Source: Cocleimonas sp. (GTDB lineage Bacteria; Pseudomonadota; Gammaproteobacteria; Thiotrichales; Thiotrichaceae). From it: a DNA stretch of 64,000 nt. The first letter of the stretch is position 1. Each line of letters opens with the position of its first letter. The notes under the pieces are model-generated. The model did not search any database. It saw only the letters and a list, made by a program, of their open reading frames with translations, and was not told the origin of the DNA. Positions 1,587 to 63,120 of this stretch are shown one piece after another. Position numbers and translations under genes: made by a program. The stretch covers positions 19,070 through 83,069 of the forward strand of contig JAKIUW010000008.1 of the NCBI GenBank assembly GCA_021647365.1. The letters run 5' to 3'.

Positions 1587-1613
1587 ATCATGTAAAACTA
1601 GGGGGGTGTGCTT
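1587..1613 (+). repeat. G-tract repeat copy 1 (CTA subtype, forward)
   Basis: atcatgtaaaactaggggggtgtgctt, 31 nt after the htpG stop. Confidence 0.9.
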
Positions 1614-1639
1614 CATAATAGGAATCACACCCCTTTTTT
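1603..1639 (+). terminator. htpG intrinsic terminator built from a repeat core
   Basis: ggggtgtg (1603-1610, repeat core) pairs with cacacccc (1626-1633), followed by TTTTTT. Confidence 0.6.
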
Positions 1640-1673
1640 ATTTAATTCCACTCAGTACAGTTGAAGCTAAGTT

Positions 1674-2468
1674 ATGAACATTTATCAATCTGCACATCAT
1701 TGTTTAATGCTCAACGACGTTGCTAAAAAGCGAACTTGTGTGGATGCCTTATATAAGGCTTGGAAGAATAAAGAAGTTACGCGGGATGATTATGATCTTG
1801 TGAGTATAGAAACCCCCGGTCGCCCAAGCAAGCCAGAGCTTATAGATCCTTTGTTGTTAAAGCGTCGCAAGCTTGGTTCAGAAACGGGTCGCGCTATGTT
1901 GATTCACGCTATCGCGCATATCGAATTTAATGCAATAAACTTAGCGCTGGATGCGGTGTATCGCTTTCGTGATATGCCCGATCAATATTACAGTGACTGG
2001 CTCAAAGTAGCCTCAGAAGAGGCGTATCATTTTTCATTACTCGATGAACGCTTAAAAAGTCTGGGCTATAACTATGGCAATTTCCCCGCGCATAATGGCT
2101 TATGGGAAATGGTTTTAAAAACGGACCACGATGTCATGATACGCATGGCGCTCGTGCCACGCGTACTTGAGGCGCGTGGTTTGGATGTGACTCCAGGGAT
2201 GATGGAACGTTTGGCAAAAGTAGGTGATCACGAGACAGTTGACATACTAAAAGTTATATTACGTGATGAAATAGGACATGTGGCAATAGGTTCGTACTGG
2301 TTCAAACATTGCTGTGAATCTTTCAAAATAAACCCAGAACAAACCTTTCGTGACTTGTTGGTTGAATACATGGGCGGCGGGATACGCGGACCGTTTTATA
2401 TGGAAGGGCGTTTGCTTGCAGGGTTTAGCCAAGAAGAGATGGATGATCTGGTTGCTATGATGGCTTAG
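1674..2468 (+). CDS. Ferritin-like DUF455 family protein
   Basis: 264 aa with the DUF455-type pattern (AIAHIEFNAINLALDA, SEEAYHF, PRVLEARGLDV, RDEIGHV). Confidence 0.72.
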   Translation: MNIYQSAHHCLMLNDVAKKRTCVDALYKAWKNKEVTRDDYDLVSIETPGRPSKPELIDPLLLKRRKLGSETGRAMLIHAIAHIEFNAINLALDAVYRFRDMPDQYYSDWLKVASEEAYHFSLLDERLKSLGYNYGNFPAHNGLWEMVLKTDHDVMIRMALVPRVLEARGLDVTPGMMERLAKVGDHETVDILKVILRDEIGHVAIGSYWFKHCCESFKINPEQTFRDLLVEYMGGGIRGPFYMEGRLLAGFSQEEMDDLVAMMA

Positions 2469-2487
2469 TGGTTTCTTCTACTCCCTC

Positions 2488-2516
2488 CATCATGTAAAAC
2501 TAGGGGGGTGTGCTTT
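2488..2516 (+). repeat. G-tract repeat copy 2 (CTA, forward)
   Basis: catcatgtaaaactaggggggtgtgcttt, between convergent stops at 2468 and 2528. Confidence 0.9.
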
Positions 2517-2527
2517 TTATCATAATG

Positions 2528-3274
2528 TTATAAATCAAACTCAATCTGAAGTCCTAAGTGGTCAGATGAGCGTTCATTAATTCCTGCGACTTTTTCTTTG
2601 CCAAAAGTTGTAAAGCTTTTTATGCTATTTTCGTTGCCTAAGCCTTGATGCCACACACGATCGTAGCGGGCTTTGTATTGATTAATTTGCCATGTGCTTT
2701 TGTGTTTTTTGGCTGAGCCTGTTGTCTCCCATGCATCTTTTACAGACTTCACAACTTCAGGCTCTAGATTTTGCCATTCTGATTTCCTCAAATTGGTATC
2801 ACCTGCAAAAATGATGGCGTCTTGGTGATTGTTCATTATGTCTAATATTTGTTTGGCTTGATCAACACGCATGGATGCGCCAGGTTTTTGGCTTTCTAAA
2901 TGTGCTGTCATGATAGTTAAGCCTTCAATGCTAAGTGTTGATAAGCCTCTGCCTTGATCGCTGTATGAGAATTTTTCGTAGTGAGTTTCAATAACAGGGT
3001 GACGTGTGGCGATGACTTCAAAATAGGAACGCTCTGTCGGCGCATCAGGAAACAAGGTAAATCCTGCCGCCGTTAAATGCGGGACGAGATGTGCGTGAAA
3101 AGTGCGCTCAACCACTTCTTGTAATAGCACAATATCAGGCATATTGGGTTTAAAGTCGGGTATTACCGCTTTTTCAATCGGCGCGCCAAGGAGTAGATGA
3201 AACATGGCGGCTTCGGTGCGCATGTCGAGATGTTCATCTTCTAAACCGTTGAGATTCCATGTAACAAGATTCAT
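2528..3274 (-). CDS. Endonuclease/exonuclease/phosphatase (EEP) family protein
   Basis: N-terminal WNLNG and C-terminal SDHLGL motifs of the EEP fold. Start moved to ATG at 3274 (MNLVTWNLNG), 10 nt after the upstream stop; the longer ORF would overlap the upstream gene. Confidence 0.72.
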   Translation of the reverse strand: MNLVTWNLNGLEDEHLDMRTEAAMFHLLLGAPIEKAVIPDFKPNMPDIVLLQEVVERTFHAHLVPHLTAAGFTLFPDAPTERSYFEVIATRHPVIETHYEKFSYSDQGRGLSTLSIEGLTIMTAHLESQKPGASMRVDQAKQILDIMNNHQDAIIFAGDTNLRKSEWQNLEPEVVKSVKDAWETTGSAKKHKSTWQINQYKARYDRVWHQGLGNENSIKSFTTFGKEKVAGINERSSDHLGLQIEFDL

Positions 3275-3284
3275 ATAATAAAAA

Positions 3285-4133: not shown

Positions 4134-4194
4134 TCACATGTCCATCATTACTTCAGCGGGTTTTATCATACAGCAATATTGAGGGAGAATCTTT

Positions 4195-4220
4195 ATCATG
4201 TAAAAGTGGGGGGGGTGTGG
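4195..4220 (+). repeat. G-tract repeat copy 3 (GTG, forward, G8 tract)
   Basis: atcatgtaaaagtggggggggtgtgg. Confidence 0.88.
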
Positions 4221-4325: not shown

Positions 4326-5657
4326 TTATTCAAATTCCATAGCTCTATAAATACGCCCCGCATTTTGCAAGGCAAGCTCATTAAAAGTATCCAAATGAGA
4401 GTAGTCTGATTGATCAATCTTGTAAGCTTCTTGTTCGCTACCATCATCTTCAAGAATTTTAGCCACTTGCTCGCGCATATAAACGAGATAATCCTTGGTG
4501 TATTTTGTTAGTTCGCCCATATCCGTGGTGGGAGCGCCATGACCGGGGATGACAATCTCAGGCTTGAGCGCTTCAAAGGCATCCCAAGTTTTAATCCAGC
4601 CTTCGGTATCGGTATGTTCCATGACGGGTAGTAGTCGTTGGCGGAAGGCTAAATCGCCTGAAATCATCAGTTTCTTTTTAGGTAGCCAGAGTGAAATGTC
4701 ACCTGGGCTATGTGCAGGCCCTAGGCGTAATAGCACGATATGTTCGCCACCCAGTTCAATCTCCATCTTATCTTCGAAAGTTTTATCAGCATAAGCGAGT
4801 GTGGTGTATTGAGATTTATCACGACGACCACGTTGCATCCGCTCTATTATTTGATCTCCATGTGCTTTCATCTCTTCAAGTGCATCAACGTGTGCGATAA
4901 CAGTTGCGCCTTGTTCTTGCCAGTAGTTTGTGCCGAGCATGGCGTGACCTTGGGCATTCTCCAATACAATATATTTTACAGGTTGATCGGTGATTTTTTT
5001 GATCTCTGTATGCAGGGCTTGAGCGAGTAAATAATTATCCCCAGCATTAAAAACCAGCACGCCTGATTTAGTAACAATAAAGGATAAATTGTTATTGTGG
5101 CCTGAGTTGGCATAAGTCGCTGGTGCCGTTGCACCAATAGCCGAGTAGACATTATCTTTTACCAGAACTGGCAAACTGTAGAGCATTGACTCAGGCGCTT
5201 TATCTGTGTGATTGATGGGCAGTTTCAATTCTTGCCATTTATTATAACCATCCGCGTAGTTTTTCACATTGGTATAGCCTAAATCCATCAGTGTTCGTGC
5301 TGCCAGTGGGCTGCGCTGATTTGTGCCGCAATAGACGATGATAGGCGTGTCTTTGGTTTTTACATGGCTTGCAACATCAAACTCCAACCAGCCACGTGGA
5401 ATATTGACATGTTCATCGGCATCAATCGAACCACCGATAAAATCAACCTCATTGGCGGTGCGTACATCGATTAATTCAATTTTAGGATTCTTTTTTAAGA
5501 GTGCTTGAAGCTCAGCTGTGTTGATATTGTTAATGGATTTATTGGCATCTTGAATGGCTTTTTCGCCAGCAGTTTGGGGTGGTTCTGCATGGCTGAATGT
5601 TGGTATTAGCATCGCTATGAATAAGGCATGTAAAAGTGGGGGGGTGTGAATTCTCAT
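4326..5657 (-). CDS. Secreted rhodanese domain + metallo-beta-lactamase-fold fusion protein
   Basis: Signal-peptide-like N-terminus ending FSHA, rhodanese loop VYCGTNQRS, C-terminal MBL-fold region (PGHGAPT). AGGAA lies 4 nt upstream of ATG 5657. Codons 4-10 are encoded by a repeat copy. Confidence 0.72.
   Translation of the reverse strand: MRIHTPPLLHALFIAMLIPTFSHAEPPQTAGEKAIQDANKSINNINTAELQALLKKNPKIELIDVRTANEVDFIGGSIDADEHVNIPRGWLEFDVASHVKTKDTPIIVYCGTNQRSPLAARTLMDLGYTNVKNYADGYNKWQELKLPINHTDKAPESMLYSLPVLVKDNVYSAIGATAPATYANSGHNNNLSFIVTKSGVLVFNAGDNYLLAQALHTEIKKITDQPVKYIVLENAQGHAMLGTNYWQEQGATVIAHVDALEEMKAHGDQIIERMQRGRRDKSQYTTLAYADKTFEDKMEIELGGEHIVLLRLGPAHSPGDISLWLPKKKLMISGDLAFRQRLLPVMEHTDTEGWIKTWDAFEALKPEIVIPGHGAPTTDMGELTKYTKDYLVYMREQVAKILEDDGSEQEAYKIDQSDYSHLDTFNELALQNAGRIYRAMEFE
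5627..5648 (+). repeat. G-tract repeat copy 4 (GTG, forward), inside CDS 4326..5657
   Basis: catgtaaaagtgggggggtgtg. Read on the minus strand as HTPPLLH, codons 4-10. Confidence 0.9.
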
Positions 5658-5682: not shown

Positions 5683-7245
5683 TTAAACTTTACTATAGTC
5701 TAAAAGCTTATTGGCAAGTGATTCAATTGACATATTAGTTTGTGCGCAGGAGTTTGCAGGTTTTGAGTGCCATATAAAATAATCAGAATGATCATCGTTG
5801 TAATCAGTTTTTTGATAAATATCGGGCATACTGGGAATGTGATCGCCATAGAAACAGAGCGTAGTTTCTCTGCTTGATTGTCGGTAATTATCCGTCAATG
5901 CTTTGATCATTTTATCCGCGTTTTTTAAGTGGCGCAGGTAGACGGTTAGATCGTTTAGGCCCCCCAATTTTGTATCAGAATAATATGTGCTTTGTTCTTG
6001 TTTGTTTGTTTTCTCAAGATGCAATGGACCGTGATTTTCCATAGTAATCGCAAATATAAACAAAGGCTTATCGGTTATTTGTTTTGTGATTTCAAGTATT
6101 TTGTCGGTAACGGCTTGATCGGAAATATAAGGGCCGGATTTTGTCGCGCCGTCAAAACTGCCAATATCAATAAACTCATCAAAACCTAGTTTAGGGAAGA
6201 GTTTGTCGCGTCCAAAAAAAGAGGCAGGATGAGGGTGGATGCACACGCAATAGTAGCCTTGAGATTGCAATGCTGAGGCGATGGAGCTGACGGGCATCTG
6301 ATGAATAAATTGATAAGGGTAGTAGCGATACAAACCCATATCTTGATATTTTAGCCCTGTTAGAAATGAGAACTCAGAGCGCATGGTATTGGCACCCCAT
6401 GCAGGGACTTTCAGTTTGCCATATTGTGCAGACTCGGCGTTACAGGCATCAAAGTTTTTTAGAATATCGGTTTTAATGGATGGATGTAAACGGCGCGCAT
6501 CAAAAAAGGATTCGCTTTGGATAACGGTGATATTGGGTTTGTCTTTATCTTTATCGCTTAGACCTTTATTAAAATCTGAATCCATCATGTAAAAGTGGGG
6601 GGGTGTGCTTTCAGTATTCTTATTCTGAGTAAAGAACGGTGATGATTGTAATGTTTGCACTATCTGTTGCTTATGCTCTTTGCTTCTTGCTTGTACCGTG
6701 TATGTGACAAGCGTGTTGATCAAGCCGTAGCGGGCGTTGTCTTCTGCAGGGTTGGCAGAAAGTTTGAGTTTTTCAGCGCTGTTTTTGATAAAGAATCCAA
6801 TGCCGATAATAGCCAGCAGAGATAGAAAAATACGTTTGGCAGTAAACGCCATCGCAGGTTCTAGCGTTAGCACGGCAATAATCAGCCCGATGATGATAAT
6901 GGGTGCGATGATGACAGGGGCTAATCCCAAAAAAGGAAAGTATAAGCGCGGGTGCTTAAAGGCTTGGGAGAACATTGCAAAATCAGAAAATACTATTGGC
7001 TCTTTAAGCGCTTTGAATTTCGCATTGCTTACAGCAATCACAATAATGAAAAACACCACAAGCGCAATGCCTGAGAAAATAGGGCGTTGCACAATTAATG
7101 TCAGCACTATAAATAATATGCTGATGATAGAAGCTTGTAATATCAAGGTGTTATTGCTGAAAGTTGCTTCTTTAGGTTTGCTAAATCGTTCTAGCCAGAT
7201 CGAGGCTGTAATAGTGAAAAATAAGGCGAATATAAACGTTAGCAT
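5683..7245 (-). CDS. LTA-synthase/sulfatase-family membrane transferase
   Basis: About 5 N-terminal TM helices followed by a sulfatase-fold domain (ITVIQSESFFDARR, TMENHGP, YGDHIPS). A repeat copy is read in-frame in the linker. Confidence 0.75.
   Translation of the reverse strand: MLTFIFALFFTITASIWLERFSKPKEATFSNNTLILQASIISILFIVLTLIVQRPIFSGIALVVFFIIVIAVSNAKFKALKEPIVFSDFAMFSQAFKHPRLYFPFLGLAPVIIAPIIIIGLIIAVLTLEPAMAFTAKRIFLSLLAIIGIGFFIKNSAEKLKLSANPAEDNARYGLINTLVTYTVQARSKEHKQQIVQTLQSSPFFTQNKNTESTPPHFYMMDSDFNKGLSDKDKDKPNITVIQSESFFDARRLHPSIKTDILKNFDACNAESAQYGKLKVPAWGANTMRSEFSFLTGLKYQDMGLYRYYPYQFIHQMPVSSIASALQSQGYYCVCIHPHPASFFGRDKLFPKLGFDEFIDIGSFDGATKSGPYISDQAVTDKILEITKQITDKPLFIFAITMENHGPLHLEKTNKQEQSTYYSDTKLGGLNDLTVYLRHLKNADKMIKALTDNYRQSSRETTLCFYGDHIPSMPDIYQKTDYNDDHSDYFIWHSKPANSCAQTNMSIESLANKLLDYSKV
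6583..6611 (+). repeat. G-tract repeat copy 5 (GTG, forward), inside CDS 5683..7245
   Basis: catcatgtaaaagtgggggggtgtgcttt. Read on the minus strand as STPPHFYMM. Confidence 0.9.
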
Positions 7246-9421: not shown

Positions 9422-10297
9422 TTAAGCAAGTTCCTTGTGTTGATTAAGCGCTAGCTTGTCATGGACTTCCAAGACTTTTCGAACTTCAGGGTGAGGTCGT
9501 GTATTTCCAAAGCTTTTTAATAATTTGACGGCTGTTTTTGAAGCAGACTCCCTTTTATAGTTTCTTAACCATTTTTCAAAATCGTTGATTTTTCTGCGCT
9601 CAGATCGAGGATAACGGTTGGGTGGTCTTTCGATGTTGATACGCCAAGGTTTTGGTGTAAGCCGTGCTCTAAAGCATTGTTGCTGATGGCAAAGATGCTT
9701 ATAGAGTGGGTCAACTTCGAGCGCTGTAAATAGTTGCGACATTTCAGTTAAATCGTTCAACTTATCCATTGAGTAAATTCGATTAGTGATGACGAATCGA
9801 AGCCCAGCGAATGTTTCATAAACAATTATTGATAGCTTTGGATTGTCCTTTTGGTATTGTTCTATTTTGTTTATATAGAATGCTTTATCTTTATAAATAC
9901 GACCAAAAAGCCTGCCTAGAAACCCAGGTGGCTTTTCATCAATATCTACGTCACCAAACATGACTCTCTCAGTATTGAGGACAATTGCGCCGTAATTATT
10001 ACGTGTGAGAACGGCTAGCGTGCTTCCATCATCTGCTGATATTTCCTCAATTACTTCTTCTCTTATAAAGCCATATTCATAATCACTTTTGTCGGTGAAC
10101 TCACTTTTCACCAGTTTTTCAAATATTATTAGTCGCTCTTTAGCACGTTGCATCGCTGACTCGAGGCTTTCGTTTGAAGCCCCCCAGACGGTGAATGTAC
10201 TGTTTGGGTCAAGTGGCTTACCTGTGCGTGGATCAATTAAATATTTATCTGCACCCACTTTAGTTTCGATACTTTTCCAGTACTTTGCAAATTTCAT
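9422..10297 (-). CDS. Hypothetical protein (no family recognised)
   Basis: 291-aa ORF with coding-like composition and basic C-terminal third. Bounded by a repeat copy and the response-regulator gene. Confidence 0.55.
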   Translation of the reverse strand: MKFAKYWKSIETKVGADKYLIDPRTGKPLDPNSTFTVWGASNESLESAMQRAKERLIIFEKLVKSEFTDKSDYEYGFIREEVIEEISADDGSTLAVLTRNNYGAIVLNTERVMFGDVDIDEKPPGFLGRLFGRIYKDKAFYINKIEQYQKDNPKLSIIVYETFAGLRFVITNRIYSMDKLNDLTEMSQLFTALEVDPLYKHLCHQQQCFRARLTPKPWRINIERPPNRYPRSERRKINDFEKWLRNYKRESASKTAVKLLKSFGNTRPHPEVRKVLEVHDKLALNQHKELA

Positions 10298-10355
10298 ATA
10301 TTGCCTATTTTAGAAAGTAAGTCTTGAATAATTACACGAGTGCACAGATTGCATG

Positions 10356-10382
10356 CATCATGTAAAACTAGGGGGGTGTGCT
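10356..10382 (+). repeat. G-tract repeat copy 6 (CTA, forward)
   Basis: catcatgtaaaactaggggggtgtgct. Confidence 0.9.
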
Positions 10383-10397
10383 CGACAAGTTCTGCTT

Positions 10398-11048
10398 TTA
10401 AACATAACCATACTTCTTAGCATAACGAATTAATCCTGAAATTGAATGCGATTCAATCTTGCGGTAGATATTCCCCCGGTGGCATTCTACTGTTCTTACG
10501 CTGATTGAGTGCTTCTCAGCGATTCTTTTGTTGTTTAATCCATCCAATAATTCCACTAAAATTAATTGCTCGCGTTTGGTTAGTTTGTTTGCATCTTTTT
10601 TACTGTTGGCGACATCGCTTGCGCTGGAGCAGAAGTGTTTTTTACCGTTATAAATTGAGCGTACGGCTTCTATCATTTCGGCGGCGGGTTGGTCTTTTAG
10701 AATATAGCCCTGCGCGCCTGAGTCGATAGCGTTTTGCATGTATTCTTTATTGTCGTGCATGGTAAGAATCAGCACTTTGATGTGGGGGTGTGATTGCGAT
10801 AGCTTTCGTGTGGCTTCTAGCCCATTAATGACGGGCATACTGATGTCGGCAATAATCACATCAGGATTGAGTGCTTCTGCTTGGTCTAATAATTCCTGTC
10901 CGTTATTGGCAACTCCTATGACATTGATGTCTTCAATTTCTTCAAAGCGAGTGCGAATACCATCTTGCACTAGGGGGTGATCATCGGCTAATACGACCGT
11001 GATGGGATTTATGTCAATCGACTCTGTGGCTGTAAATGATGAGTTCAT
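10398..11048 (-). CDS. NarL/LuxR-family response regulator
   Basis: REC domain (VVLADDHPLV, DVIIADISMP, ILTMHD) plus C-terminal LuxR HTH (LTKREQLILVELLDGLNNKRIAEKHSISVRTVECHR). Confidence 0.9.
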   Translation of the reverse strand: MNSSFTATESIDINPITVVLADDHPLVQDGIRTRFEEIEDINVIGVANNGQELLDQAEALNPDVIIADISMPVINGLEATRKLSQSHPHIKVLILTMHDNKEYMQNAIDSGAQGYILKDQPAAEMIEAVRSIYNGKKHFCSSASDVANSKKDANKLTKREQLILVELLDGLNNKRIAEKHSISVRTVECHRGNIYRKIESHSISGLIRYAKKYGYV

Positions 11049-12438: not shown

Positions 12439-12575
12439 GGGATGATTTCTTCTTATTTTTTATAAAAAGATAAAAGATTTTTTTGCCACGGAGTCTGAGC
12501 AACGCGAGGCAATATTAGAGCGTAACGACACGGAAGAAAACAATAAACAAAGATAATAGATGTGCTCTTTATACG

Positions 12576-12603
12576 AAGCACACCCCCCCACTTTTACAGG
12601 ATG
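12576..12603 (-). repeat. G-tract repeat copy 7a (GTG, reverse), left arm of a pair
   Basis: aagcacacccccccacttttacaggatg. Confidence 0.88.
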
Positions 12604-12619
12604 TTTTTTAGCGACAAAA

Positions 12620-12647
12620 CATGCTGTAAAAGTGGGGGAGTGTGTTT
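12620..12647 (+). repeat. G-tract repeat copy 7b (GTG, forward, degenerate G5AG)
   Basis: catgctgtaaaagtgggggagtgtgttt. Confidence 0.8.
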
Positions 12648-12691
12648 CGATAGTTCTCAGCAGAACTGCTTTGAAGTCGTGGTAAATAAGC

Positions 12692-15600
12692 TTATGCACC
12701 TAACTCACCTAAAGCTACTTTCTTTGATGTAGAAAAATCAGTCTTACCACTACCCAACTTAGGCACAGCATTCACATTGATGAACTTGGCAGGAATCATC
12801 AAAGGATTCATCTCAGCAGCAATTAATGCTTTCTTAATATCTGCCGCGGTCATTTCATTGGCAATGAGCAGGGTGACTTTTTCACCTTTTTTCTCATCGG
12901 GTAAGTTGACGGCAATAAGGTCTAAATCATCGTCACCTAACGCTTTACGAATGGTTTCTTCAACGGCAGATAAACTCACCATTTCGCCACCGAGTTTGGC
13001 AAAGCGTGAGTAGCGATCAACAATTACGAGGAAGCTATCAGAATCTAAATGGCCTTTATCGCCACTACGATACCAGCGTTTACCATCAATTTCTTCGATA
13101 ACTTCGGCTGTTTTGGCTTCGTCGTGTAGGTAGCCTTTCATAACTTGCGGTCCGCCGATAAGAATCAAACCATCTTCGCCTGTTGCAAGTTCTTCCAATG
13201 TGTCAGGGTCAACAATACGGAAGCTGGTACCTGGTAGTGGCATTCCTACTGTGCCAAAACGATTTCCAAGTTGTGGTTTCCAATAATTGGTGTCCAATTC
13301 ATCAGGAATATTCACGCTGGCAACAGGCGATGTTTCGGTCGTGCCATATCCTTCCAGAATGATCTTGCTAAATTTTGCACTGAAAGCTTCGCGAATGGCT
13401 GGGTTTAGGCGTTCTGCTCCCGCAATAATCATGCGGAGCGATTTCAACATTAATGGATGAACCTTCTTATTCATAGTGTACAAGCGTAAGAAGGTGGATG
13501 TGCCAAACAATAATGTTGCTTGGTTTCGTGCGACACCTTTTGCAATAGTGACAACATCGGTAGGGTCTGGATGACAAACAATGGGGATTCCTTCTGATAA
13601 TGGCATGAAGGTAGTTGCTAGCAAGCCAAAGGCGTGAAAGGTGGGCAGGGTAGACATCACTACATCATTTTCACGAGTATTGAGCATATCGGCAACTTGG
13701 CGTGAATTTGTGGCTAAATTTAGGTGACTCAACTCCACACCTTTGGGAGTGCCTTCACTGCCGCTGGAAAATAGGATTGCGGCGGTGCTTTGCAAACTCA
13801 CGCGTTTGATGTAAATCCATTCCAATACCTTTGCAGGTAACAGCATTACCGTAAGCATCGTGCCAAGCATTTTGGCTTTTGAAAGCTCAGCTTTAAAATC
13901 TTCAAGATAAATAAGTTTCGTTTCAGGCAGTATCTCTTTGATTTTTATGCCACGATCATCCAACTTACGGATGAATTTCTTTGAGGTGTAAACCGTTTTG
14001 ATTTCTGCACTTTTAACCGAACCTTGTATCGCTTCAGCGCTGGAGGTGAAGTTTAGGTTTACCACAGTCTTGCCAAGCGTTAACACCGCCATATTGGTAA
14101 TGGCACCCCCAACGCTGGCAGGGACTAATAATCCAATGTTTTGCTCAGGACTCTTTTTCTTGATTAAACCAGAAAAAGCAAAAACAGCCGTGATGAATTT
14201 ATGGTGGCTGACAGGCTCGCCAGTAATATCCGTCGCAGCCATTTGAAAACTCATGCGCTTTGCGGTTTTTAGCCATGAAACAGGGATTGGGTCTAAGGTT
14301 TTAGAGTAATCTTGCCAAGAGGTGAAGGATAGGTCAAATACGCGACGTTTTAGTTCATCGGGTGTTGTATCAGCAGACATGGGTTTACCAAAAGCGACGA
14401 TAATATCGCGCTTAAAACCAGATTGGCGGGCTTCTTTTAAGAAACCACTGGAGCGTGAAAAACGACTACCCCAAAGTCCGTGTAAGTAAAATGGAACAAT
14501 CTTCGCACCACTGCCTTCAATGGCTCTTTGATAACCGCGTTTAAATTCTGACAACTGTCCAGTACGGCTGATTGTGCCTTCAGGAAACAAACAAACTGCT
14601 TTACCTTCTTTGAGCAGAGCATTTATGGTTTCAATTGATCCCGCCGCGCCAGCACCACTAGCAATTGGGATAGCCCCAAATAATTTTAAAATGCCTTTGA
14701 GATACCAGCGCTCATAATAGCCGCGTTCAATCACAAAATTTAACGGGCGCGGACTGGCGATTTGTACTAATGCCCAGTCAACCCAACTGATGTGGTTACC
14801 CAGAAGTAATACGCCACCAGAATGAGGTAAGTCTTCAAAGCCCAATACTTTCATGCGGTAACGTGCGGAGAATATTCGTGCGATGATAAAGCGTAATAAT
14901 GATTCTGGGATTTTTAATATAGTGTAAATGCTGCCAAGCATGGCAACCATAAACAATCCCCATAAAATCACGGTACTGCTGACTTTCGCATAAGCGAGCA
15001 AGCTAGTCGCAATCAAGAACAACAGCATCACACTAAATTGAATGAGATTATTTGAAGCAAGAACACGCCCTAACTGGTTGTTTCTCGTGTGATATTGCAT
15101 CAAGGCGTTGAGTGGAACCACAAAGAAGCCGCCCATAATACCGAGGAATAAAAAGTTGAGCGCTTGCATCACAGATGAGTCAAAAACACGCAGTAAGATT
15201 AATGCAATTGTAACGCCGACAGCGCCAATTGGGACTAAGCCAGTTTCAATATGGTTTCGTGACACTCGACCTGCTGTGATAGAGCCTATCATGACGCCAA
15301 GCCCAGCAAACGCCATCAAGCCTTGCACAACGGCCGTGTTTGTTATGCCCAACATTTCTTTTGCGTAAGCAGGATAGGTTGCGAGTAAAACTTGTGAGAT
15401 TGCCCAAAAAACCGCAAGGCCAAGGATGGATAGCCAAATATAAGGATGGCGTTTTACCAAGCGTATATTACGTGCTTGTGTTCTACCGTGAAAATAATCA
15501 TCCCAACGAAAGTGCATTTTCTTTTTGGTATTCGTTGTTTGGGGTAAACGATAAGCCATAACCAATTCGAATATTGAGAGTACAATTAAGACCCAACCTA

Positions 15601-17576: not shown

Positions 17577-17606
17577 AAAAGCACACCCCCCTAGTTTTAC
17601 ATCATG
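17577..17606 (-). repeat. G-tract repeat copy 8a (CTA, reverse)
   Basis: aaaagcacacccccctagttttacatcatg. Shares catg with copy 8b. Confidence 0.88.
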
Positions 17607-17629
17607 AAAAACTAGGAGGGTGTGCTTTT
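17603..17629 (+). repeat. G-tract repeat copy 8b (CTA, forward, degenerate)
   Basis: catgaaaaactaggagggtgtgctttt. Confidence 0.8.
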
Positions 17630-20573: not shown

Positions 20574-21086
20574 ATGAAAAAGAATATTAGTTTATCCTGT
20601 AATAGAAGAAAATCTAACAAAAGAAGTCTGCGAGGCTTCACCCTAATCGAACTCATGATTACGGTAGCGATTGTAGGCATATTGGCTTCTATCGCAATGC
20701 CTGCGTACAACCATTATATAGTCAGAACAAAACTTAAATCGGGTATGGATTTTTTAGAAAAAGCCAAACTTCACGTTGAACTTTATCGTCAAGATGGTAG
20801 TAAATTATCAGACTTGGATAACACAGCTACTACATATACAGCTCTTGGATTGAATAAAAATATTAATACAGAATACCTCCGTGATTATTGGATAGCCCCA
20901 TATGGTGGAAATGATATAACTATTTGGGTTAGGAGTAAGAATGCTACAGGCTTGCCTCAAACCAATGCAGGAAGATGGCCTTTATACCTAGCAGGTAATG
21001 TAGAAAATATGGGTATAAAATGGCAATGTAAGTCTGACTATAGTGGCGGTGTCGCTAAAAAATTCCTGCCAAGCGGTTGTCGATAA
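20574..21086 (+). CDS. Type IV pilin (PilA/PilE-like)
   Basis: Prepilin motif G|[27 protein letters not shown] and a C-terminal Cys pair ([18 protein letters not shown]). The leader is 21 aa. Confidence 0.85.
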
Positions 21087-21268
21087 GCTGTATTTTAAGA
21101 AAATAAAAATCCCTAGCTCGAATTTATGTGTAGCCTTGATGAATTCTAGCCGTCGTTAAATACCCGCTCAGAAAGCTAACAAATAGCACTTCTTGCCTCA
21201 ATTAATCTCGATACTTCTTTCGAAAGGTGTTCGATATGCTTTTTTACGCCTAGGGCGTGCTAAAAAGC

Positions 21269-21294
21269 CATGTAAAAGTGGGGGGGTGTGCTTT
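21269..21294 (+). repeat. G-tract repeat copy 9 (GTG, forward)
   Basis: catgtaaaagtgggggggtgtgcttt. Confidence 0.9.
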
Positions 21295-40089: not shown

Positions 40090-40092
40090 ACT

Positions 40093-46405: not shown

Positions 46406-46420
46406 CATGCGCTAAAAATA

Positions 46421-46448
46421 ATCATGTAAAACTAGGGGGGTGTGCTTT
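46421..46448 (+). repeat. G-tract repeat copy 21 (CTA, forward)
   Basis: atcatgtaaaactaggggggtgtgcttt. Confidence 0.9.
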
Positions 46449-46449
46449 G

Positions 46450-46836: not shown

Positions 46837-46895
46837 GGTGATACCTTTTAAAGACAGAGTGATTAACTTAGTGAACTGTACTCCTCCGCCATAAG

Positions 46896-46924
46896 CATCA
46901 TCTAAAAGTGGGGGGGTGTGCTTT
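46896..46924 (+). repeat. G-tract repeat copy 22 (GTG, forward)
   Basis: catcatctaaaagtgggggggtgtgcttt. Confidence 0.88.
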
Positions 46925-46933
46925 GCAATAAGT

Positions 46934-49237: not shown

Positions 49238-49267
49238 AAAAGCACACCCCCCCACTTTTACATGATG
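49238..49267 (-). repeat. G-tract repeat copy 23 (GTG, reverse); the only reverse singleton
   Basis: aaaagcacacccccccacttttacatgatg. A possible decayed forward partner lies at about 49275-49305 (atcatgt...aaaactag). Confidence 0.88.
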
Positions 49268-49354
49268 ATTAATAATCATGTTATTCGTAAAATAAAACTA
49301 GCATCATCAAGCAGATTTTATTATTCTACGCGCTCTCGGAAGTTAGCGAGAAAT

Positions 49355-49444
49355 GGAGAGGTGACTGAGTGGCCGAAAGTACCGGTTTTGAAAACCGGCG
49401 ACGGGTTAAACCGTCCCAGGGTTCGAATCCCTGCCTCTCCGCCA
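49355..49444 (+). tRNA. tRNA-Ser (UGA)
   Basis: 90-nt class II tRNA. Acceptor ggagagg/cctctcc, anticodon loop ttTGAaa, long variable arm, T-loop ttcgaat, CCA. Confidence 0.9.
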
Positions 49445-49552: not shown

Positions 49553-49918
49553 ATGAAGCTTAAAGACATTAAAATAAAGAACTCAAAGCCTAAAGATAAG
49601 GCTTATAAGCTTATGGATGGTGTTGGGCTTTACTAGCTTGTTAATAAAACGGGCGGTAAATACTGGAGATATAACTATCGTTTCATGGGAAAGCATAAGC
49701 CCCTTTCTATTGGCGTATACCCTGATATTTCACTTAGAAAAGCTAGAGACTTACATCATCAAGCTAAAAGGCTTCTAGCTGATGGAATCGACCCCACCCA
49801 AAAAAAGCAACTTGAGAAGTCCTTAAAGATAGAGCAATCACAAAATAGCTTTAAAGCTATAGCTCTTGAATGGATTGAGAGACAACGCCCCACATGCTTA
49901 TTAACACTCAAACAATAG
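49553..49918 (+). pseudogene. P4-type tyrosine integrase remnant (N-terminal arm-binding region only)
   Basis: MKLKDIKIKNSKPKDKAYKLMDGVGLY*LVNKTGGKYWRYNYRF..LSIGVYPDISLRKARD matches the integrase N-terminal (DUF4102-type) pattern. There is an in-frame TAG at 49634-49636, and the catalytic domain is missing. Confidence 0.8.
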
Positions 49919-49920
49919 AT

Positions 49921-50887
49921 AAGCCGATACTAGTACTTTGTTACAACATCACGCTAGCAGCTCATTTACGCCAGATAATGATTTAAAGTAAATGTTTACC
50001 ATTTCATGGTTGGTGTGGAGAACAGTTAAGACTTTACAATATTGATAAGCCAAAAGAGAAAGGAGTAAAACAATACACCGATAAGCTTGTAGAAACTGTT
50101 ATTAATTCAACTGAAACAGGCCATATTGCCCAAAGGGCAATATGGCGCTATCATGATTGATGAAGGTCACGACTTTCAATCAAACTTATCTCAAGCATGA
50201 TTAACCCAGAGACTGATTCATTATTGTTACTCTATGACGATGCACAGTCACTCTACAATAAGAACAAGCTGTCTAGCGTTGTATTTTCAAGCAAGAGGTA
50301 GAACAACTATTCTACGTGTTAATTACCGCAATACCGATAAAATCATCAACATCGCCTACCGTTTTGCTGAAAAATATTTTAAAACCAAAGAAAGCGATGA
50401 AGATCATATTCCTTTAATCAGACCAAAAACAGGAGATCGAAAAGGAAAAGCGCCCTCTATAGGTTTATATGAAAATTTTAAAGAAGATAATTAAACGCAT
50501 TATTTTTTGTGTTTAATTATCTTCATAAAAGCCAAGGTTATGCTTGGTCGGATATGTGTATCACCTACCCGAAAAAATATTTAGGTGAAAAGATTCAACT
50601 TGCCTTATCAATGAAGGTATTCCCAGACAGTGGCCAAAGAACCCGCAACATAAAAAGCAATATGATTCGTCTGCATACTCTGTAACAATGCATAGTAGCA
50701 AAGGCTTAGAATTCCCCATTGTGCTGTTTCATGTGCGGGTATTCCGTCATACAAAAATGCTAAACAAGCGGATGAAGCAAAGCTTTTATATGTGGCTATG
50801 ACACGTTCTACTGACAAGTTATTAATTACTAATTATAAAGAAAGTGAGTTGTTTAATGAGCTTTCTGCAATAGAAAAAACGGACTAG
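49921..50887 (+). pseudogene. Superfamily-1 (UvrD-like) helicase remnant with multiple frameshifts
   Basis: Fragments in three frames: KPILVLCYNITLAAHLRQ, YGAIMIDEGHDFQ, LLYDDAQSLY, RTTILRVNYRNTDKI, HSSKGLEFPIV, and LLYVAMTRSTDKLLI. Confidence 0.75.
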
Positions 50888-50968
50888 AAATAGTTTAACC
50901 ATTGCGACAAGACAAACAAATTACTGTGATGGTGAATATACATGCTATTTATTTTTAACTCGAAATAA

Positions 50969-51055
50969 TGGTGCCCAGGGCCGGAATCGAACCGGCACGG
51001 TGTTGCCACCGAGGGATTTTAAGTCCCTTGCGTCTACCAATTTCGCCACCTGGGC
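50969..51055 (-). tRNA. tRNA-Leu (UAA)
   Basis: 87-nt class II tRNA on the minus strand. Acceptor gcccagg/cctgggc, anticodon loop ctTAAaa, CCA encoded. Confidence 0.88.
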
Positions 51056-51150
51056 ATATTACTTAGATGGTCTTTTTAAATATCATTTACAAACAATTCA
51101 AAAAAAGGTAGACAATTTTAAACTGTGCAGTTGTCTGCGGTTGTAAATAA

Positions 51151-51224
51151 TGGAGGCTGAGCCCGGAATCGAACCGGGCTAGGCGGTTTTGCAAACCGCT
51201 GCATAACCTCTTTGCTACTCAGCC
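51151..51224 (-). tRNA. tRNA-Cys (GCA), canonical
   Basis: 74 nt. Acceptor ggctgag/ctcagcc, D-loop with GG, anticodon loop ttGCAaa, discriminator T + CCA. Closely resembles E. coli tRNA-Cys as I remember it. Confidence 0.88.
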
Positions 51225-51311
51225 CCACAAGGCGCGGAATAATAGCATCAAAGTTAAATATTAGGAAAGGATTTTACACGATTTATTTTGTACTAATAAA
51301 AAGCCCCTTCA

Positions 51312-51891
51312 AAGCATCTGTTTCGCTTTAAGAATCCTTTGTATTCTTTAGATGCCAGTGCTATTAATTTATCAATAAAGCTCTTTCCTTGGGCTTTACA
51401 CCAACCCTCTGCCGCGAATGTAAAGTTAAGTGTTGGTCTCAATCATGGCAACATGCTTCCTGAGTTTGTAGCGTTAAGTGATGGCAATGAAAACGATAGA
51501 ATCCAAGGACGGAAGTTTGATTTTCCCGCTGGTAGCATTGCAGCTTTTGATAAAACCTATCAGTTTTTAACTGAACAATTTTAAACTCTGTGCAGCTACA
51601 ATAACCTCGATCTATAAAGATCGTTGGCAAGTAGAATTGTTCTTTAAAGCGATCAAACAAAACCTCAAGATTCACGCCTTTGTGGGTGTTTCTCGCAATG
51701 CTGTTATGACACAGATATGGATTGCCATGATCACCTGTTTGTTATTAGCCTATGCTCGTCATAGTGCTCAAACAGGCTGGACTGTACAAAGGATATTAAG
51801 GGTAATTCAGCTCAATTTATTTGAGAGAAAGAGCCTGCGAGAAATTTTAATTCCTGATCCTCCTAGGCATAAAAAGGAGGTGCCTAGATGA
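51312..51891 (+). pseudogene. IS4-family DDE transposase remnant (N-terminally truncated, internal deletion)
   Basis: YSLDASAINLSIKLFPWA...VKLSVGLNH..LPEFVALSDG..FDK, then a break, then TSIYKDRWQVELFFKAIKQNLKI (the Y-2-R-3-E-6-K region). Confidence 0.75.
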
Positions 51892-51985
51892 GGTTTTCCT
51901 TTTGATGGGAAACTGTGGGACAGCAGTGGGGGGCTTTATATTATTCTTTTTTTCGTGTCTTTCAGTGTCTTACATGGCAAAATAA

Positions 51986-57928: not shown

Positions 57929-58801
57929 ATGAAAAAAGTACTTATTACAGGCGCAGACGGACAGCTAGGCTACGAGCTACAACGCACCGTGCTAGCAGGC
58001 TACGAATGTATCGCCACCGATAAAAATGCGTTAGATATTACCAATGCCGATGCGATTACAGCATTTGTCGCGAAAATAAAACCTGATGTCATCATCAACT
58101 CTGCCGCCTATACCGCGGTTGATAAAGCCGAAGAAGAAGTTGAGCTTGCAACTGCAATCAACACCACTGGCGCGGGGAATCTTGCCCAAGTGTGTAAAGA
58201 CAGCGATATACAATTTATGCAGATTTCGACTGATTTTGTGTTTGATGGCAAAGGCCACACGCCATATCCCGTCGATGCACCCGCACAACCTGATGGCATG
58301 TACGGCAAAACCAAGCAAGACGGTGATGATCAGGTTTTAAAAATACTGGGCGATAATGCGTTTATCATTCGTACCTCGTGGCTGTATTCGGCACACGGCA
58401 ATAACTTTGTAAAAACCATGTTACGTTTTATGGCTGAGCGCGAAGAGCTGGGCATCATAGCGGATCAAATCGGCACACCAACATGGGCAAACTCACTCGC
58501 ACAAGCGGTTTGGCAAGCGATTGAAAAGGACATTACAGGTATTCACCATTGGAGTGATGCAGGCGTGGCAAGTTGGTATGACTTTGCATACGCGATTATG
58601 GAAGAGGGCGTAGCGCTTGGACTTTTGGATAAACCCATTACGATCAACGCGATTACCACAGCAGACTACCCAACACCCGCCAGCCGACCTTGTTATAGCG
58701 TGATGGACAAAACGACAACATGGCAAGCGTTGGAAATGAAAAGCGAGCATTGGCGCGTGGCGTTACGACGAATGATGAGAGAACTGAAAGAACAAATGTA
58801 G
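57929..58801 (+). CDS. rfbD: dTDP-4-dehydrorhamnose reductase
   Basis: ITGADGQLG, NSAAYTAVDKAE, and YGKTK motifs. Confidence 0.92.
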   Translation: MKKVLITGADGQLGYELQRTVLAGYECIATDKNALDITNADAITAFVAKIKPDVIINSAAYTAVDKAEEEVELATAINTTGAGNLAQVCKDSDIQFMQISTDFVFDGKGHTPYPVDAPAQPDGMYGKTKQDGDDQVLKILGDNAFIIRTSWLYSAHGNNFVKTMLRFMAEREELGIIADQIGTPTWANSLAQAVWQAIEKDITGIHHWSDAGVASWYDFAYAIMEEGVALGLLDKPITINAITTADYPTPASRPCYSVMDKTTTWQALEMKSEHWRVALRRMMRELKEQM

Positions 58802-58802
58802 A

Positions 58803-58828
58803 CCACACCCCCCCACTTTTACATGATG
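58803..58828 (-). repeat. G-tract repeat copy 24a (GTG, reverse)
   Basis: ccacacccccccacttttacatgatg. Begins 2 nt after the rfbD stop. Confidence 0.88.
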
Positions 58829-58846
58829 TTTACTATAAATAACAAA

Positions 58847-58874
58847 CATCGTGTAAAAGTGGGGGGGTGTGCTT
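58847..58874 (+). repeat. G-tract repeat copy 24b (GTG, forward)
   Basis: catcgtgtaaaagtgggggggtgtgctt. Confidence 0.88.
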
Positions 58875-58899
58875 GTAGAATAATTAAACGAGCATAGAA

Positions 58900-60913: not shown

Positions 60914-60922
60914 ATAAACAAA

Positions 60923-60951
60923 CATCATGTAAAACTAGGGGGGTGTGCTTT
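60923..60951 (+). repeat. G-tract repeat copy 25 (CTA, forward)
   Basis: catcatgtaaaactaggggggtgtgcttt, 10 nt after the stop of the AbiC-like gene. Confidence 0.9.
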
Positions 60952-60982: not shown

Positions 60983-61453
60983 ATGTCTAAAACATTTAAC
61001 GACTTAATCGCAGATGCATTAACCGAGATAGATGAACTTTTTCCGTGGGACTTAGAAAAGCATTTAGAAAACCACCCAGAAACCTTATTGCTCGATATTC
61101 GTGAGCCTGATGAGTTTGAAGGCGCGCATCTTAAAAATTCCATCCACGTACCACGCGGTATTTTAGAACAAGCCTGCGAATGGGATTATGCCGAGACAGT
61201 TCCTGAATTAGTGAATGCGCGCGAACGTCCTGTATTAGTCATTTGCCGATCAGGCAATCGCAGTGTGTTAGCGGCATTAACGATGAAATTGCTCGGCTAT
61301 AAAAATTTAACATCATTAAAAATGGGTGTGAAAGGCTGTAATGATTCGGATATAGTTCTATACAATCAAGCGGGCGAAGAAGCAGACCCAGACTGGGTAG
61401 ATGAGTTTTTTAACCCACCTTTGAGAAATAATCAGTTATCGGCTAATCAATAG
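60983..61453 (+). CDS. Single-domain rhodanese-like sulfurtransferase
   Basis: Active-site loop CRSGNRS. Confidence 0.82.
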   Translation: MSKTFNDLIADALTEIDELFPWDLEKHLENHPETLLLDIREPDEFEGAHLKNSIHVPRGILEQACEWDYAETVPELVNARERPVLVICRSGNRSVLAALTMKLLGYKNLTSLKMGVKGCNDSDIVLYNQAGEEADPDWVDEFFNPPLRNNQLSANQ

Positions 61454-61479
61454 TTCTTATTTGTAGTAATACGCCACTG

Positions 61480-61502
61480 TTGGGCTTCGTGCCTCAGCCC
61501 AA
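61480..61502. repeat. ttgggct-tcgtgcctc-agcccaa hairpin repeat
   Basis: Sits between convergent genes (stops at 61453 and 61521). It is part of tgttgggcttcgtgcctcagcccaacctac, a repeat type I recall from other gammaproteobacterial genomes. Confidence 0.5.
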
Positions 61503-61520
61503 CCTACGGTTTAAGAAGAT

Positions 61521-62375
61521 TTAGCCCGTAGCAACAGGTCGCTGATCATCCCGAATCCACTCACTCCATGAACCTGCGTATAGCTTCGAGCCTGATAAGC
61601 CTGCTATTTCCATCGCTAACATATTATGACAAGCAGTTACGCCTGAACCACATAGGTGTACGATGTCTGTAGCAGACTGATTGGGTGTTTGTTTGATAAT
61701 AGTTGTAAACTGTTTTTGTAATTCATCAGCGCTTAAAAATAAGCCATCGTCACCAAGGTTTAGCTGAAAAGCACGATTGATTGAATCAGGGATTCGCCCA
61801 GCAACGGTATCGATAGGTTCGGATTCGCCACGGTAGCGCTCGGGGGTTCTGGCATCTAAAATGGTGAACGTTTGAGCTTCAATATTATGTAGAATTTGTT
61901 CAGTACTTAACGATGTGTTGTTATTGATGTTTGCAGTAAATATTTTGGGTGAAATTGTAGGAAGTTCTTGGCTTAACGATTTACCTTCTTTAATCCATTG
62001 TGGAATTCCACCATCAAGAATCGCAACTTTCTCGTGACCAAAAGTACGCAATTGCCACCATAGGCGAACGGCAAAAGCACCGCCTACATCGTCATAGGCA
62101 ATGACTTGGGTTTGATTGTCGACACCCCAATCTCCTAGCTTTTGAATAAACTCATCAAAATCAGGAAGAGGGTGTCTACCCGTGTTTTCGGTGATAGGCG
62201 AAGAAAGATCAGTTTCTAAACTACAGAAAATAGCGCTGGGGATGTGATCCTTTTGGTAGGCTTTTAAACCAGCTTCAGGGTTGAGTAGAGATGAGCGGCA
62301 ATCAAAGATTATCCAATCAGGTTTATGCAAGTTCTTTGCAAGGTCATCGATTGATATGAGTGCCGTATATGTCAT
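61521..62375 (-). CDS. sseA: 3-mercaptopyruvate/thiosulfate sulfurtransferase (tandem rhodanese)
   Basis: Two rhodanese domains with catalytic loop CGSGVTA. Collinear with my memory of E. coli SseA. Confidence 0.8.
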   Translation of the reverse strand: MTYTALISIDDLAKNLHKPDWIIFDCRSSLLNPEAGLKAYQKDHIPSAIFCSLETDLSSPITENTGRHPLPDFDEFIQKLGDWGVDNQTQVIAYDDVGGAFAVRLWWQLRTFGHEKVAILDGGIPQWIKEGKSLSQELPTISPKIFTANINNNTSLSTEQILHNIEAQTFTILDARTPERYRGESEPIDTVAGRIPDSINRAFQLNLGDDGLFLSADELQKQFTTIIKQTPNQSATDIVHLCGSGVTACHNMLAMEIAGLSGSKLYAGSWSEWIRDDQRPVATG

Positions 62376-62378
62376 CGT

Positions 62379-63062
62379 TTATTCAGCGTTTGATAGTCGA
62401 TCACCCGTCATTAATGGGTAACAGCGGTCATACCAAATTGCAAAATCTTTATTATGAGTCATCGCCATTTTTATAATGCCGAGTTTATGTCCTGAGCGTA
62501 AAACACCAAAAACGCTGCAATCAACAAAGCTGGCTTTATCACCGCCGTAAAATGTTTTGCCGTTTAATCCTTCTTTGACCCAATGATCAATCTGAGCAAG
62601 GTACTCGCCACGTGGGTCTTCAATATTGTGTTTTGCCTTCATTCTACGCGCTACTTTTGGCATGACCAAAGCGCCTATAAAAGGAACGATAAAACCTTTA
62701 AATCCACCACCAGTGGTAATTTTTTTAATGTTTTCACGAGATGTTTTAAAATCAGGGTGAATCAAAGCAGGCAAGAAATGAACGAGTTTATTATCAACCC
62801 AATCAGTCCACTTTTTATCGTCATCTGTGACAGGGAGTTTGGCGTAATTTTTATTGATGTATTCAATGATAGTGGCTGATTCGACAATAACTTCGTCCCC
62901 ATCTTTTAATACAGGCACTTTTTTATGCTCTGTTACGCCTTCTAATTCTTTCATTCCACGAGGTGAAACATCAACCACTTCGTAAGGAGTTTTCGAAAAG
63001 TTTAATAACGCGCGAACTTTGCTACAAAAAGGACAGCCTTGGAATTGGTAAAGTGTGATCAT
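62379..63062 (-). CDS. Glutaredoxin/GST-N-domain protein (CPFC)
   Basis: N-terminal LYQFQGCPFCSKVRALL and KVPVL patterns. PGES2/Grx2-like architecture. Confidence 0.65.
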   Translation of the reverse strand: MITLYQFQGCPFCSKVRALLNFSKTPYEVVDVSPRGMKELEGVTEHKKVPVLKDGDEVIVESATIIEYINKNYAKLPVTDDDKKWTDWVDNKLVHFLPALIHPDFKTSRENIKKITTGGGFKGFIVPFIGALVMPKVARRMKAKHNIEDPRGEYLAQIDHWVKEGLNGKTFYGGDKASFVDCSVFGVLRSGHKLGIIKMAMTHNKDFAIWYDRCYPLMTGDRLSNAE

Positions 63063-63090
63063 TGTTGTTCGATACGCCTCGATAATAAAG

Positions 63091-63120
63091 CATCATGTAA
63101 AAGTAGGGGGGTGTGCTTTT
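63091..63120 (+). repeat. G-tract repeat copy 26 (GTA, forward)
   Basis: catcatgtaaaagtaggggggtgtgctttt. Confidence 0.9.

Follow-up and report, generated by a model that had tools for sequence, protein, structure and literature searches.

Abundant repeats of bacterial genomes are usually filed either as selfish hairpin elements, such as repetitive extragenic palindromic (REP) sequences, the hairpin-forming REP doublets (REPINs) and the miniature transposable elements with inverted repeats known as MITEs, or as host signals, such as DNA uptake sequences (DUS), uptake signal sequences (USS), Chi sites and FtsK-orienting polar sequences (KOPS). A 64,000-nucleotide stretch of the genome of the marine sulfur bacterium Cocleimonas sp. 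(GenBank assembly GCA_021647365.1, contig JAKIUW010000008.1, positions 19,070 to 83,069), referred to below as the window, carries a G-run repeat that combines both: its copies show copy-like identity and form doublets, and its units are non-palindromic, with conserved cores, dialects and, in some species, an orientation bias of KOPS strength. The solitary copies of this repeat point almost uniformly in one direction along the chromosome, which is the subject of this report.

In the REP system, the unit is an imperfect palindrome recognized by a Y1 enzyme and carries a conserved GTAG (or CGTC) tag. The gene for the cognate REP-associated tyrosine transposase (RAYT; Y1 HUH, PF01797) is usually single-copy and flanked by its repeats. 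The IS200/IS605 insertion sequences and their miniature derivatives, the palindrome-associated transposable elements (PATEs), are at least 100 nt long, with subterminal hairpins at both ends and neither terminal inverted repeats nor target duplications. They are biased in orientation relative to replication, as only the lagging-strand template can serve as their active strand. DUS and USS are asymmetric motifs that mark DNA for preferential uptake or transformation and carry about half of the information content of the repeat described here. KOPS and Chi are G-rich words of 5 to 8 nt, oriented along the leading strand and spread through genes; KOPS (8 bp) occur in non-coding DNA too, and Chi attenuates RecBCD/AddAB and is over-represented in core genes. 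REPs are not known to show strong replichore polarity, and neither are DUS and USS; a literature search found nothing directly addressing the replichore bias of REPs or uptake sequences.

Solitary copies of the window are almost all co-oriented with the leading strand

Copies were counted with an nhmmer profile built from the window copies of the repeat. The search returned 31 solid copies at 26 loci, 25 on the plus strand and 6 on the minus strand. The loci comprise 5 inverted pairs (12575/12616, 17577/17598, 26842/26864, 30219/30257 and 58800/58842) and 21 singletons, a density of about one locus per 2.5 kb, and all but one of the 6 minus copies are arms of the pairs. The G-rich strand was on the plus strand in 20 of the 21 singletons, the sole exception being the copy at 49239 (two-sided binomial p = 2.1e-5). 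An earlier note on this DNA, made from its letters, had reported the same 20 of 21, and its counts and copy numbering were reproduced, its copy 23 being the copy at 49239. A pattern search gave 29 motif matches in the window, compared with about 0.01 expected from dinucleotide shuffles. The copies at 22308 and 24132 are degenerate.

Weak C-rich remnants were seen just 3' of the copies at 1582, 24132 and 40090, and such remnants beside singletons were, taken overall, no commoner than background. An origin of the singletons as decayed pairs was therefore rejected. The copy at 49239 is followed by ATCATGT, the beginning of a forward arm without its G core, and the suggestion in the earlier note that this copy may have a decayed forward partner is plausible on account of this possible stump. 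A local inversion was also tried as the cause of the lone minus copy, as the tRNA-Cys genes at 46291 and 51151 are inverted; an inversion between them would flip two plus copies also and so does not explain 49239. No copies were found between 49.3 and 58.8 kb of the window.

Gene contexts were taken from greedy open reading frame (ORF) calls checked with Pfam. Intergenic loci made up 23 of the 26, and the intragenic copies were those at 42182 and 42676 in the gene for GluQ-tRNA synthetase (gluQRS) and one in a sulfatase-family ORF. Of the plus singletons, 6 had minus-strand genes on both sides and 5 had plus-strand genes on both sides, 4 lay between convergent and 1 between divergent genes, and 3 were within minus-strand ORFs; the lone minus singleton at 49239 sits between plus-strand genes. 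No repeat copy matched any Rfam family. Since all contexts are occupied, no Rfam family matches and single units do not fold (see below), the orientation of the singletons does not follow gene direction, in agreement with the earlier note.

GC skew and KOPS point along the leading strand by established rules. In the window, the GC skew was above 0 across almost the whole length. It was +0.106 in plus-strand genes, +0.019 in minus-strand genes and, with the repeats masked, +0.051 in intergenic DNA, which decomposes into about +0.06 from replication on the plus strand and about 0.04 from coding. Outside the repeats, GGGNAGGG, the canonical FtsK word of gammaproteobacteria, occurred 8 times on the plus strand (13643, 22645, 25394, 25765, 31780, 35799, 37151 and 43153) and once on the minus strand, and the KOPS words GGGCAGG and GCAGGG were distributed 6:0 and 28:4. 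By both the skew decomposition and the orientation of GGGNAGGG, the plus strand of the window is the leading strand, and it is on this strand that the repeat has its G-rich side. Other G-rich subwords outside the repeats were skewed as well (GGGTGT 31:8 and GGGTGG 28:8), as is partly expected from GC skew.

The word AGTAGGG, which overlaps the GTA variant of the repeat, was distributed 7:0 on the plus strand of the window, mostly within genes of both strands. At 11476, 34649 and 44901 it has the common context GCAA(A)GTAGGGCGT.

The exact motif was present, among the matches listed, in Cocleimonas (Thiotrichaceae) assemblies. Assembly GCA_024280715.1 belongs to the same species as the window (99.75 to 99.93% identity) and has identical copies. 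Assembly GCA_054000675.1 is a sister species with 83 to 88% nucleotide identity, and the synteny of its loci L136 and L147 with the window gives their orientation relative to replication. In these loci, 12 to 13 singletons were in the plus orientation and 1 in the minus orientation, the latter lying about 90 nt from a forward copy without its G-run. Sister copies without a counterpart in the window were distributed 6:1 in favor of plus.

The polarity was weaker in the other species. In the metagenome-assembled genome (MAG) CAYOHT01, sampled as 8-kb loci (46 loci among the matches listed), the motif was as in the window, and syntenic stretches had about 80% identity. The sign of the GC skew matched that of KOPS in 11 of 12 loci, and the singletons were concordant with the skew at a ratio of just 33:18; of 19 cases of adjacent singletons, 8 were co-oriented. 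Another two species that have the motif of the window, oriented by comEC synteny and KOPS, gave 2:1 (one copy weak) and 0:1. The pooled ratio was 66:22, with significant heterogeneity between species (chi-square p = 0.006). The two species with strong polarity had about one singleton per 3 kb, and those with weak polarity had fewer. The leading-strand bias is real in the window species and its sister, and it is not general across relatives. The claim that the polarity is tied to the chromosome and its replication rather than to transcription was thus borne out for this lineage by skew, KOPS and the sister species. An orientation near 50:50 elsewhere, which would have spoken against that claim, is approached in the MAG and the two further species and not in the sister.

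A viral contig, L151 (IMGVR_UViG_3300028042_000017, 37.8 kb), has an intact copy near its end (151 to 181), which either overlaps the start of a 262-amino-acid ORF or lies just upstream of it. The contig may represent a Cocleimonas phage or the edge of a provirus.

Unit structure, orthologous copies and known systems

The window consensus is aAAcATCATGTAAAA[G/C]T[G/A]GGGGGGTGTGCTTT, with a conserved core of about 25 bp, ATCATGTAAAA[G/C]T[G/A]GGGGGGTGTGC, followed by a weaker TTT. The information content was 47 to 50 bits over about 25 positions; about 12 bits would specify that many sites. The copies fall into discrete variants, GTG, CTA, GTA and CTG, and both arms carried the same variant in 29 of 33 pairs, compared with 37% expected (p = 2e-9). 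The units are therefore copy-like.

Single consensus units of both variants were folded on both strands and gave free energies of 0 to -1.4 kcal/mol (z of -0.6 to +1.1), which is the level of shuffled sequences. The inverted pairs, in contrast, fold into hairpins of 28 to 30 bp, the five in the window with -25 to -32 kcal/mol and z of about -10 to -12. These hairpins have G/C-rich bases flanked by A and T runs and resemble bidirectional terminators. Four of the window pairs are head-to-head and one is tail-to-tail (26842/26864). The start-to-start spacing of head-to-head arms was mostly 24 or 48 to 50 nt, and the loop sequences differed.

The length of the G-run varied from G6 to G12 among copies (L136 at 10248 to 10271; L147 at 13557 and 15582 to 15610; window at 4193), and in the copies within gluQRS and the sulfatase-family gene, slippage of the G-run would shift the frame. 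Some of the copies are extended at the 3' side by TTCGACAGGCTCAGCAGAACTGCTTTC, in the window (42676 to 42740 and 10376 to 10400) and in the MAG (L011 at 6019, L025 at 2367, L027 at 2827, L028 at 6556 and L038 at 479). The extended copies, to which the intragenic gluQRS copy belongs, suggest modular composite forms of the element, similar to bacterial interspersed mosaic elements (BIMEs). Some MAG copies are bordered on their ATCATG side by a second repeat, tgcataaattctagcagttgttaaaaaactaacgagctatcat (L008 at 7005 to 7069, L045 at 1520 to 1584, and in L037, L031, L024 and L019). The window as a whole lacks this second repeat (TTAAAAAACTAACGAGCTATCAT).

In the region shared with L147, at least 6 of the 7 window loci have a counterpart in the sister species. 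Over seven orthologous copies, the 32-nt unit was 80% identical and its central 20 nt were almost invariant, whereas the 60-nt flanks aligned at just 59%. The 25-nt core of the copy inside gluQRS (42676) was identical in three species with unalignable flanks around it; this copy lies within a stretch that is about 26 residues longer than in E. coli YadB. The copy at 42182 is intact in the window, has lost its G-run by deletion in the sister species and is degenerate in MAG locus L010, indicating decay. The pair at 30219 has CTA in both arms in the window, whereas its sister ortholog has GTG in both, so the two arms switched together.

The exact repeat was missing in species whose glutaminyl-tRNA synthetase (GlnRS) is 90 to 93% identical and in one at 76%. 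Related dialects are present in these species instead (AAACATCGAAAAACAGGGGGGGTGGC, AAACAGGCAAAACAGGGGGAGGTGTGC, AAACAGCTAAAAAGGGGGGTGTA and TAAAGTAGGGGGGTGG), some of them in the same intergenic regions. A metagenome scan with GlnRS gave relatives of at most 79% identity, none of them with the repeat, and their intergenic lengths were too variable for calling insertions.

The repeat is like REP/REPIN sequences in being short, very abundant, mostly extragenic and of lineage-specific consensus, and in occurring as singlets and as inverted doublets with long hairpins and co-derived arms (29 of 33). The tie to single-stranded fork DNA that is expected for REPs would also give strand polarity. It differs in that the unit has no hairpin, that the tag is GTGG (majority) or CTAG, with GTAG in the minor GTA variant only, and that the singlets are as intact as doublet arms and not more decayed. 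With the IS200/IS605 elements and PATEs it shares the orientation bias relative to replication and the lack of terminal inverted repeats and target duplications. The uniform orientation of IS200/IS605 is matched in the window (20:1) and the sister (12:1) and less well in the other species; the unit differs in being 25 to 33 nt long and unstructured. Of the earlier proposal of an element inserted by an HUH/Y1-type transposase (IS200/IS605 or RAYT), the uniform orientation therefore fits, whereas membership in these families does not, as the unit has no hairpin and no transposase was found in the window or in about 0.6 Mb of related DNA.

With DUS and USS, the repeat has in common an asymmetric motif with AT-rich shoulders, a frequency of about one per 1 to 2.5 kb, isolated copies alongside inverted pairs that sit at gene ends and favor certain spacings, some in-frame genic copies, dialects in related species and conservation of the motif at orthologous sites. 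The competence genes comEC/rec2 and a type IV pilin gene are present in the window, which is necessary and not sufficient for such a function. The repeat differs in having about twice the information of USS, discrete copy variants, a mainly intergenic location and a marked leading-strand bias in two species. It is G-rich and leading-strand oriented as KOPS and Chi are, at KOPS-like strength in the window (95%). The earlier candidacy of the repeat as the KOPS itself was rejected: the unit is too long (25 to 33 bp), 23 of the 26 loci are intergenic, inverted pairs occur, and the genome has a separate canonical GGGNAGGG set. The comparison with Chi covered strand bias, which the repeat shows, and the E. 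coli-type Chi GNTGGTGG was neither frequent nor skewed in the window (9:7). The repeat fits no described family cleanly and is best filed as a new variant among the abundant bacterial interspersed repeats.

Origin of the polarity

The repeat is best explained as a lineage-specific interspersed element of Cocleimonas that occurs as solitary units and inverted doublets. That the units were made from a template and did not evolve base by base is indicated by their high information content, their subfamilies of variants, the common derivation of pair arms, the joint switch at 30219 and the insertion-like gluQRS copy. For the polarity, we tentatively favor, with confidence somewhat below even, that solitary units were copied or replaced in a strand-specific and replication-coupled manner while the repeat expanded in this lineage. 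This is favored because the bias follows replication, is strongest where singletons are densest and holds for copies present in the sister only. The higher density of singletons in the two strongly polar species also fits a lineage-specific burst.

The polarity would then stem from the way in which solitary units arise and are replaced. A copy-and-paste step that uses a template may have acted at the replication fork on one of the strands of single-stranded DNA, by analogy with the mobilization of IS200/IS605 and REP/RAYT elements on the lagging-strand template, and would have been active during an expansion common to the window species and its sister. Both the link to single-stranded fork DNA and the enzyme are presumed from this analogy. 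We tentatively suggest that the element works like a strand-targeting mobile repeat rather than as a member of the REP/RAYT family. If the bias does come from copying, the repeat offers a natural system for studying strand-specific insertion at the fork by a hairpin-independent enzyme.

Several results weigh against replication-coupled copying. Known Y1/HUH enzymes recognize hairpins, and the single Cocleimonas unit is without structure (z of about 0). Pfam scans of all window ORFs revealed no RAYT/Y1 transposase or TnpA. A phmmer search with E. coli RayT as the single query against the ORFs of 596 kb of Cocleimonas loci, a limited sampling, gave a best E value of 1.2; within this scope, none of the HUH Y1 genes that the earlier note had proposed to look for turned up. 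The ratio of 33:18 in the MAG and those of 2:1 and 0:1 in the two further species are weaker than in the window. The near-invariant core of about 20 nt between diverged flanks is more easily explained by selection or drive unless sites are reused or retemplated. Finally, no empty site paired with a filled one, with clean junctions or a target duplication, was recovered in the alignments of L010, L140/141/146 and L147, as the intergenic DNA was too diverged.

These points bear in part on a different explanation, in which the repeat is a DNA site used by the host and kept by selection or drive. Such a site could be uptake-signal-like or Chi-like, or an asymmetric protein site tolerated in the replication-permissive orientation, and the polarity would be its function or the outcome of drive on a G-rich motif in a G-skewed strand. 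We regard this as the main rival, and a serious one, if on the unlikely side. The near-invariant cores between diverged flanks would be expected of such a site, as would the retention of the intragenic gluQRS copy in three species and the related but distinct dialects, some in the same intergenic regions. The density of about one locus per 2.5 kb, the non-palindromic units and the terminator-like pairs at gene ends also recall DUS and USS, and comEC/rec2 and the type IV pilin gene lie in the window. In addition, a motif of 11 G and 2 C at 6% skew would be expected at about 3.3:1 if it grew from proto-sites. This is near the pooled 66:22, which weakens the objection from strand bias to a DUS- or USS-like site. 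A required orientation, however, should be conserved, whereas polarity was 33:18, 2:1 and 0:1 elsewhere. The 47 to 50 bits and the variant subfamilies shared between arms indicate copying rather than convergence on a binding site, and some copies decay (42182 in the sister and L010). DUS and USS hold about half the information and are not known to show replichore polarity, and canonical KOPS are already separate. A host-used site thus explains the core conservation and the dialects more naturally, and the weak polarity elsewhere and the copy-like features less well. If the bias did come from function, the repeat would represent a new kind of polar chromosome signal.

It is unlikely that the 20:1 ratio is in part a matter of sampling, with a genus-wide bias of about 3:1 looking stronger in this 64 kb. 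Such a bias could result from compositional or mutational asymmetry or from differential decay of C-rich copies on the leading strand, with the non-independence of old inherited copies adding to the ratio. The pooled 66:22 is indeed near the ratio of about 3.3:1 expected from composition, a count of 20 or more out of 21 at a proportion of 0.77 is just mildly unusual (P = 0.03), and where the window and the sister overlap, most window copies are inherited and so not independent there. This is countered by the heterogeneity between species (p = 0.006) and by the 6:1 ratio of sister copies missing from the window. Composition cannot make copies of at least 25 nt (0.01 in shuffles), and a skew of 6% is not a plausible driver of a 20-fold difference in decay.

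A more specific proposal, which we consider distinctly improbable, is that the G-run unit is recognized by, and co-evolves with, a DNA-handling system of the host that reads it on one strand as replication proceeds. It could be a polar signal for uptake or recombination, or be bound by a protein that allows forks through one way only. This would explain the conserved cores, the species dialects and the leading-strand co-orientation of solitary copies, and, if true, a repeat of about 25 bp would have given rise to a replichore-polar analogue of DUS/USS or Chi.

An orientation set by transcription, in which the repeat is a terminator half, an RNA element or part of a promoter and the chromosomal appearance comes from the local gene arrangement, is very improbable: inverted pairs do resemble bidirectional intrinsic terminators, and a few plus singletons after plus-strand genes (e.g., 1582) pair with C-rich sequence close by that precedes a T-run, but the gene contexts, with 6 plus singletons between minus-strand genes and 3 inside minus-strand ORFs, contradict it, neither strand of single units folds, Rfam gave no match, and orientation in the MAG is likewise unrelated to flanking genes.

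Individual copies and other features of the window

Singletons described here are on the plus strand unless stated otherwise. Copy 1 (1582 to 1614), of the CTA variant, follows the plus-strand gene htpG, and a short CACACCCC with a T-run lies 11 nt downstream. Copy 2 (2487 to 2517) is between convergent genes. Copies 3 (4193 to 4219; G8, slightly degenerate), 4 (5621 to 5653) and 6 (10352 to 10382) are between minus-strand genes, and copy 5 (6579 to 6612) is in frame in the minus-strand sulfatase-family ORF (5683 to 7245), where it encodes STPPHFYMM. Two head-to-head inverted pairs follow, one at 12575 to 12649 (minus arm 12575 to 12608, plus arm 12616 to 12649) with a hairpin of -32 kcal/mol and a tight one at 17577 to 17629 (minus arm 17577 to 17607, plus arm 17598 to 17629). 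Copy 9 (21262 to 21295) is downstream of the type IV pilin gene (20574 to 21086) and has its sister ortholog in L136 at 1501. Copy 10 (22308 to 22338), which is degenerate, is in a convergent context.

Copy 11 (24132 to 24150; 5' part degenerate), in a divergent context, and copy 12 (25030 to 25059), between an ion-channel gene and glnS, form the left and right direct repeats around the ion-channel gene (24184 to 25023). The corresponding purM-glnS interval of the sister (L136, 6279 to 6355) has one copy and no channel gene, and in other relatives the neighbors upstream of the ion-channel gene are different. Repeat copies thus seem to sit at deletion or rearrangement junctions. The repeat would thus mark such junctions, and it breaks short-read assemblies of these marine Thiotrichaceae.

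The tail-to-tail pair (26842 to 26894; plus arm 26842 to 26869, minus arm 26864 to 26894) lies after glnS. Copy 14 (28765 to 28796), in a divergent context, has its sister counterpart in L147 at 915. The head-to-head pair at 30219 to 30290 is the one with the CTA variant in both arms and GTG in both arms of the sister ortholog. Copy 16 (31094 to 31124), between minus-strand genes, abuts a stop codon, copy 17 (37916 to 37948) directly follows the stop codon of comEC/rec2, and copy 18 (40090 to 40121), in a convergent context, abuts the bolA stop. In the minus-strand gluQRS gene, copy 19 (42182 to 42216) supplies the C-terminus (last residues) and the stop, and copy 20 (42676 to 42705) is in frame inside the gene and encodes EAHPPTFTG. 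Copy 21 (46415 to 46449) follows a tRNA-Cys gene, and copies 22 (46891 to 46925) and 26 (63087 to 63120; GTA variant) are between minus-strand genes. Copy 23 (49239 to 49271), on the minus strand, is beside the tRNA-Ser gene and a decayed-looking island. A head-to-head pair at 58800 to 58875 (minus arm 58800 to 58832, plus arm 58842 to 58875) and copy 25 (60919 to 60951), between plus-strand genes, complete the set.

The comEC/rec2 gene (35552 to 37915) is full-length, with DUF4131, Competence and Lactamase_B domains. Together with the pilin gene, it would be relevant to natural competence, short of being proof of it. A low-coding stretch at 49600 to 51900, beside tRNA-Ser (49355 to 49444) and between the inverted tRNA-Cys genes at 46291 (plus) and 51151 (minus), looks like a decayed island. 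It contains an ORF (49685 to 49918) that we take, by eye, to be an N-terminal fragment resembling a phage-type integrase, and fragments (51339 to 51891) that presumably resemble an IS4-type transposase, again as judged by eye. A cspA thermoregulator (RF01766, 116.7 bits) at 26905 to 27303 on the minus strand covers a cold-shock gene that is too short to figure in the ORF calls and sits between the tail-to-tail pair after glnS and terB.

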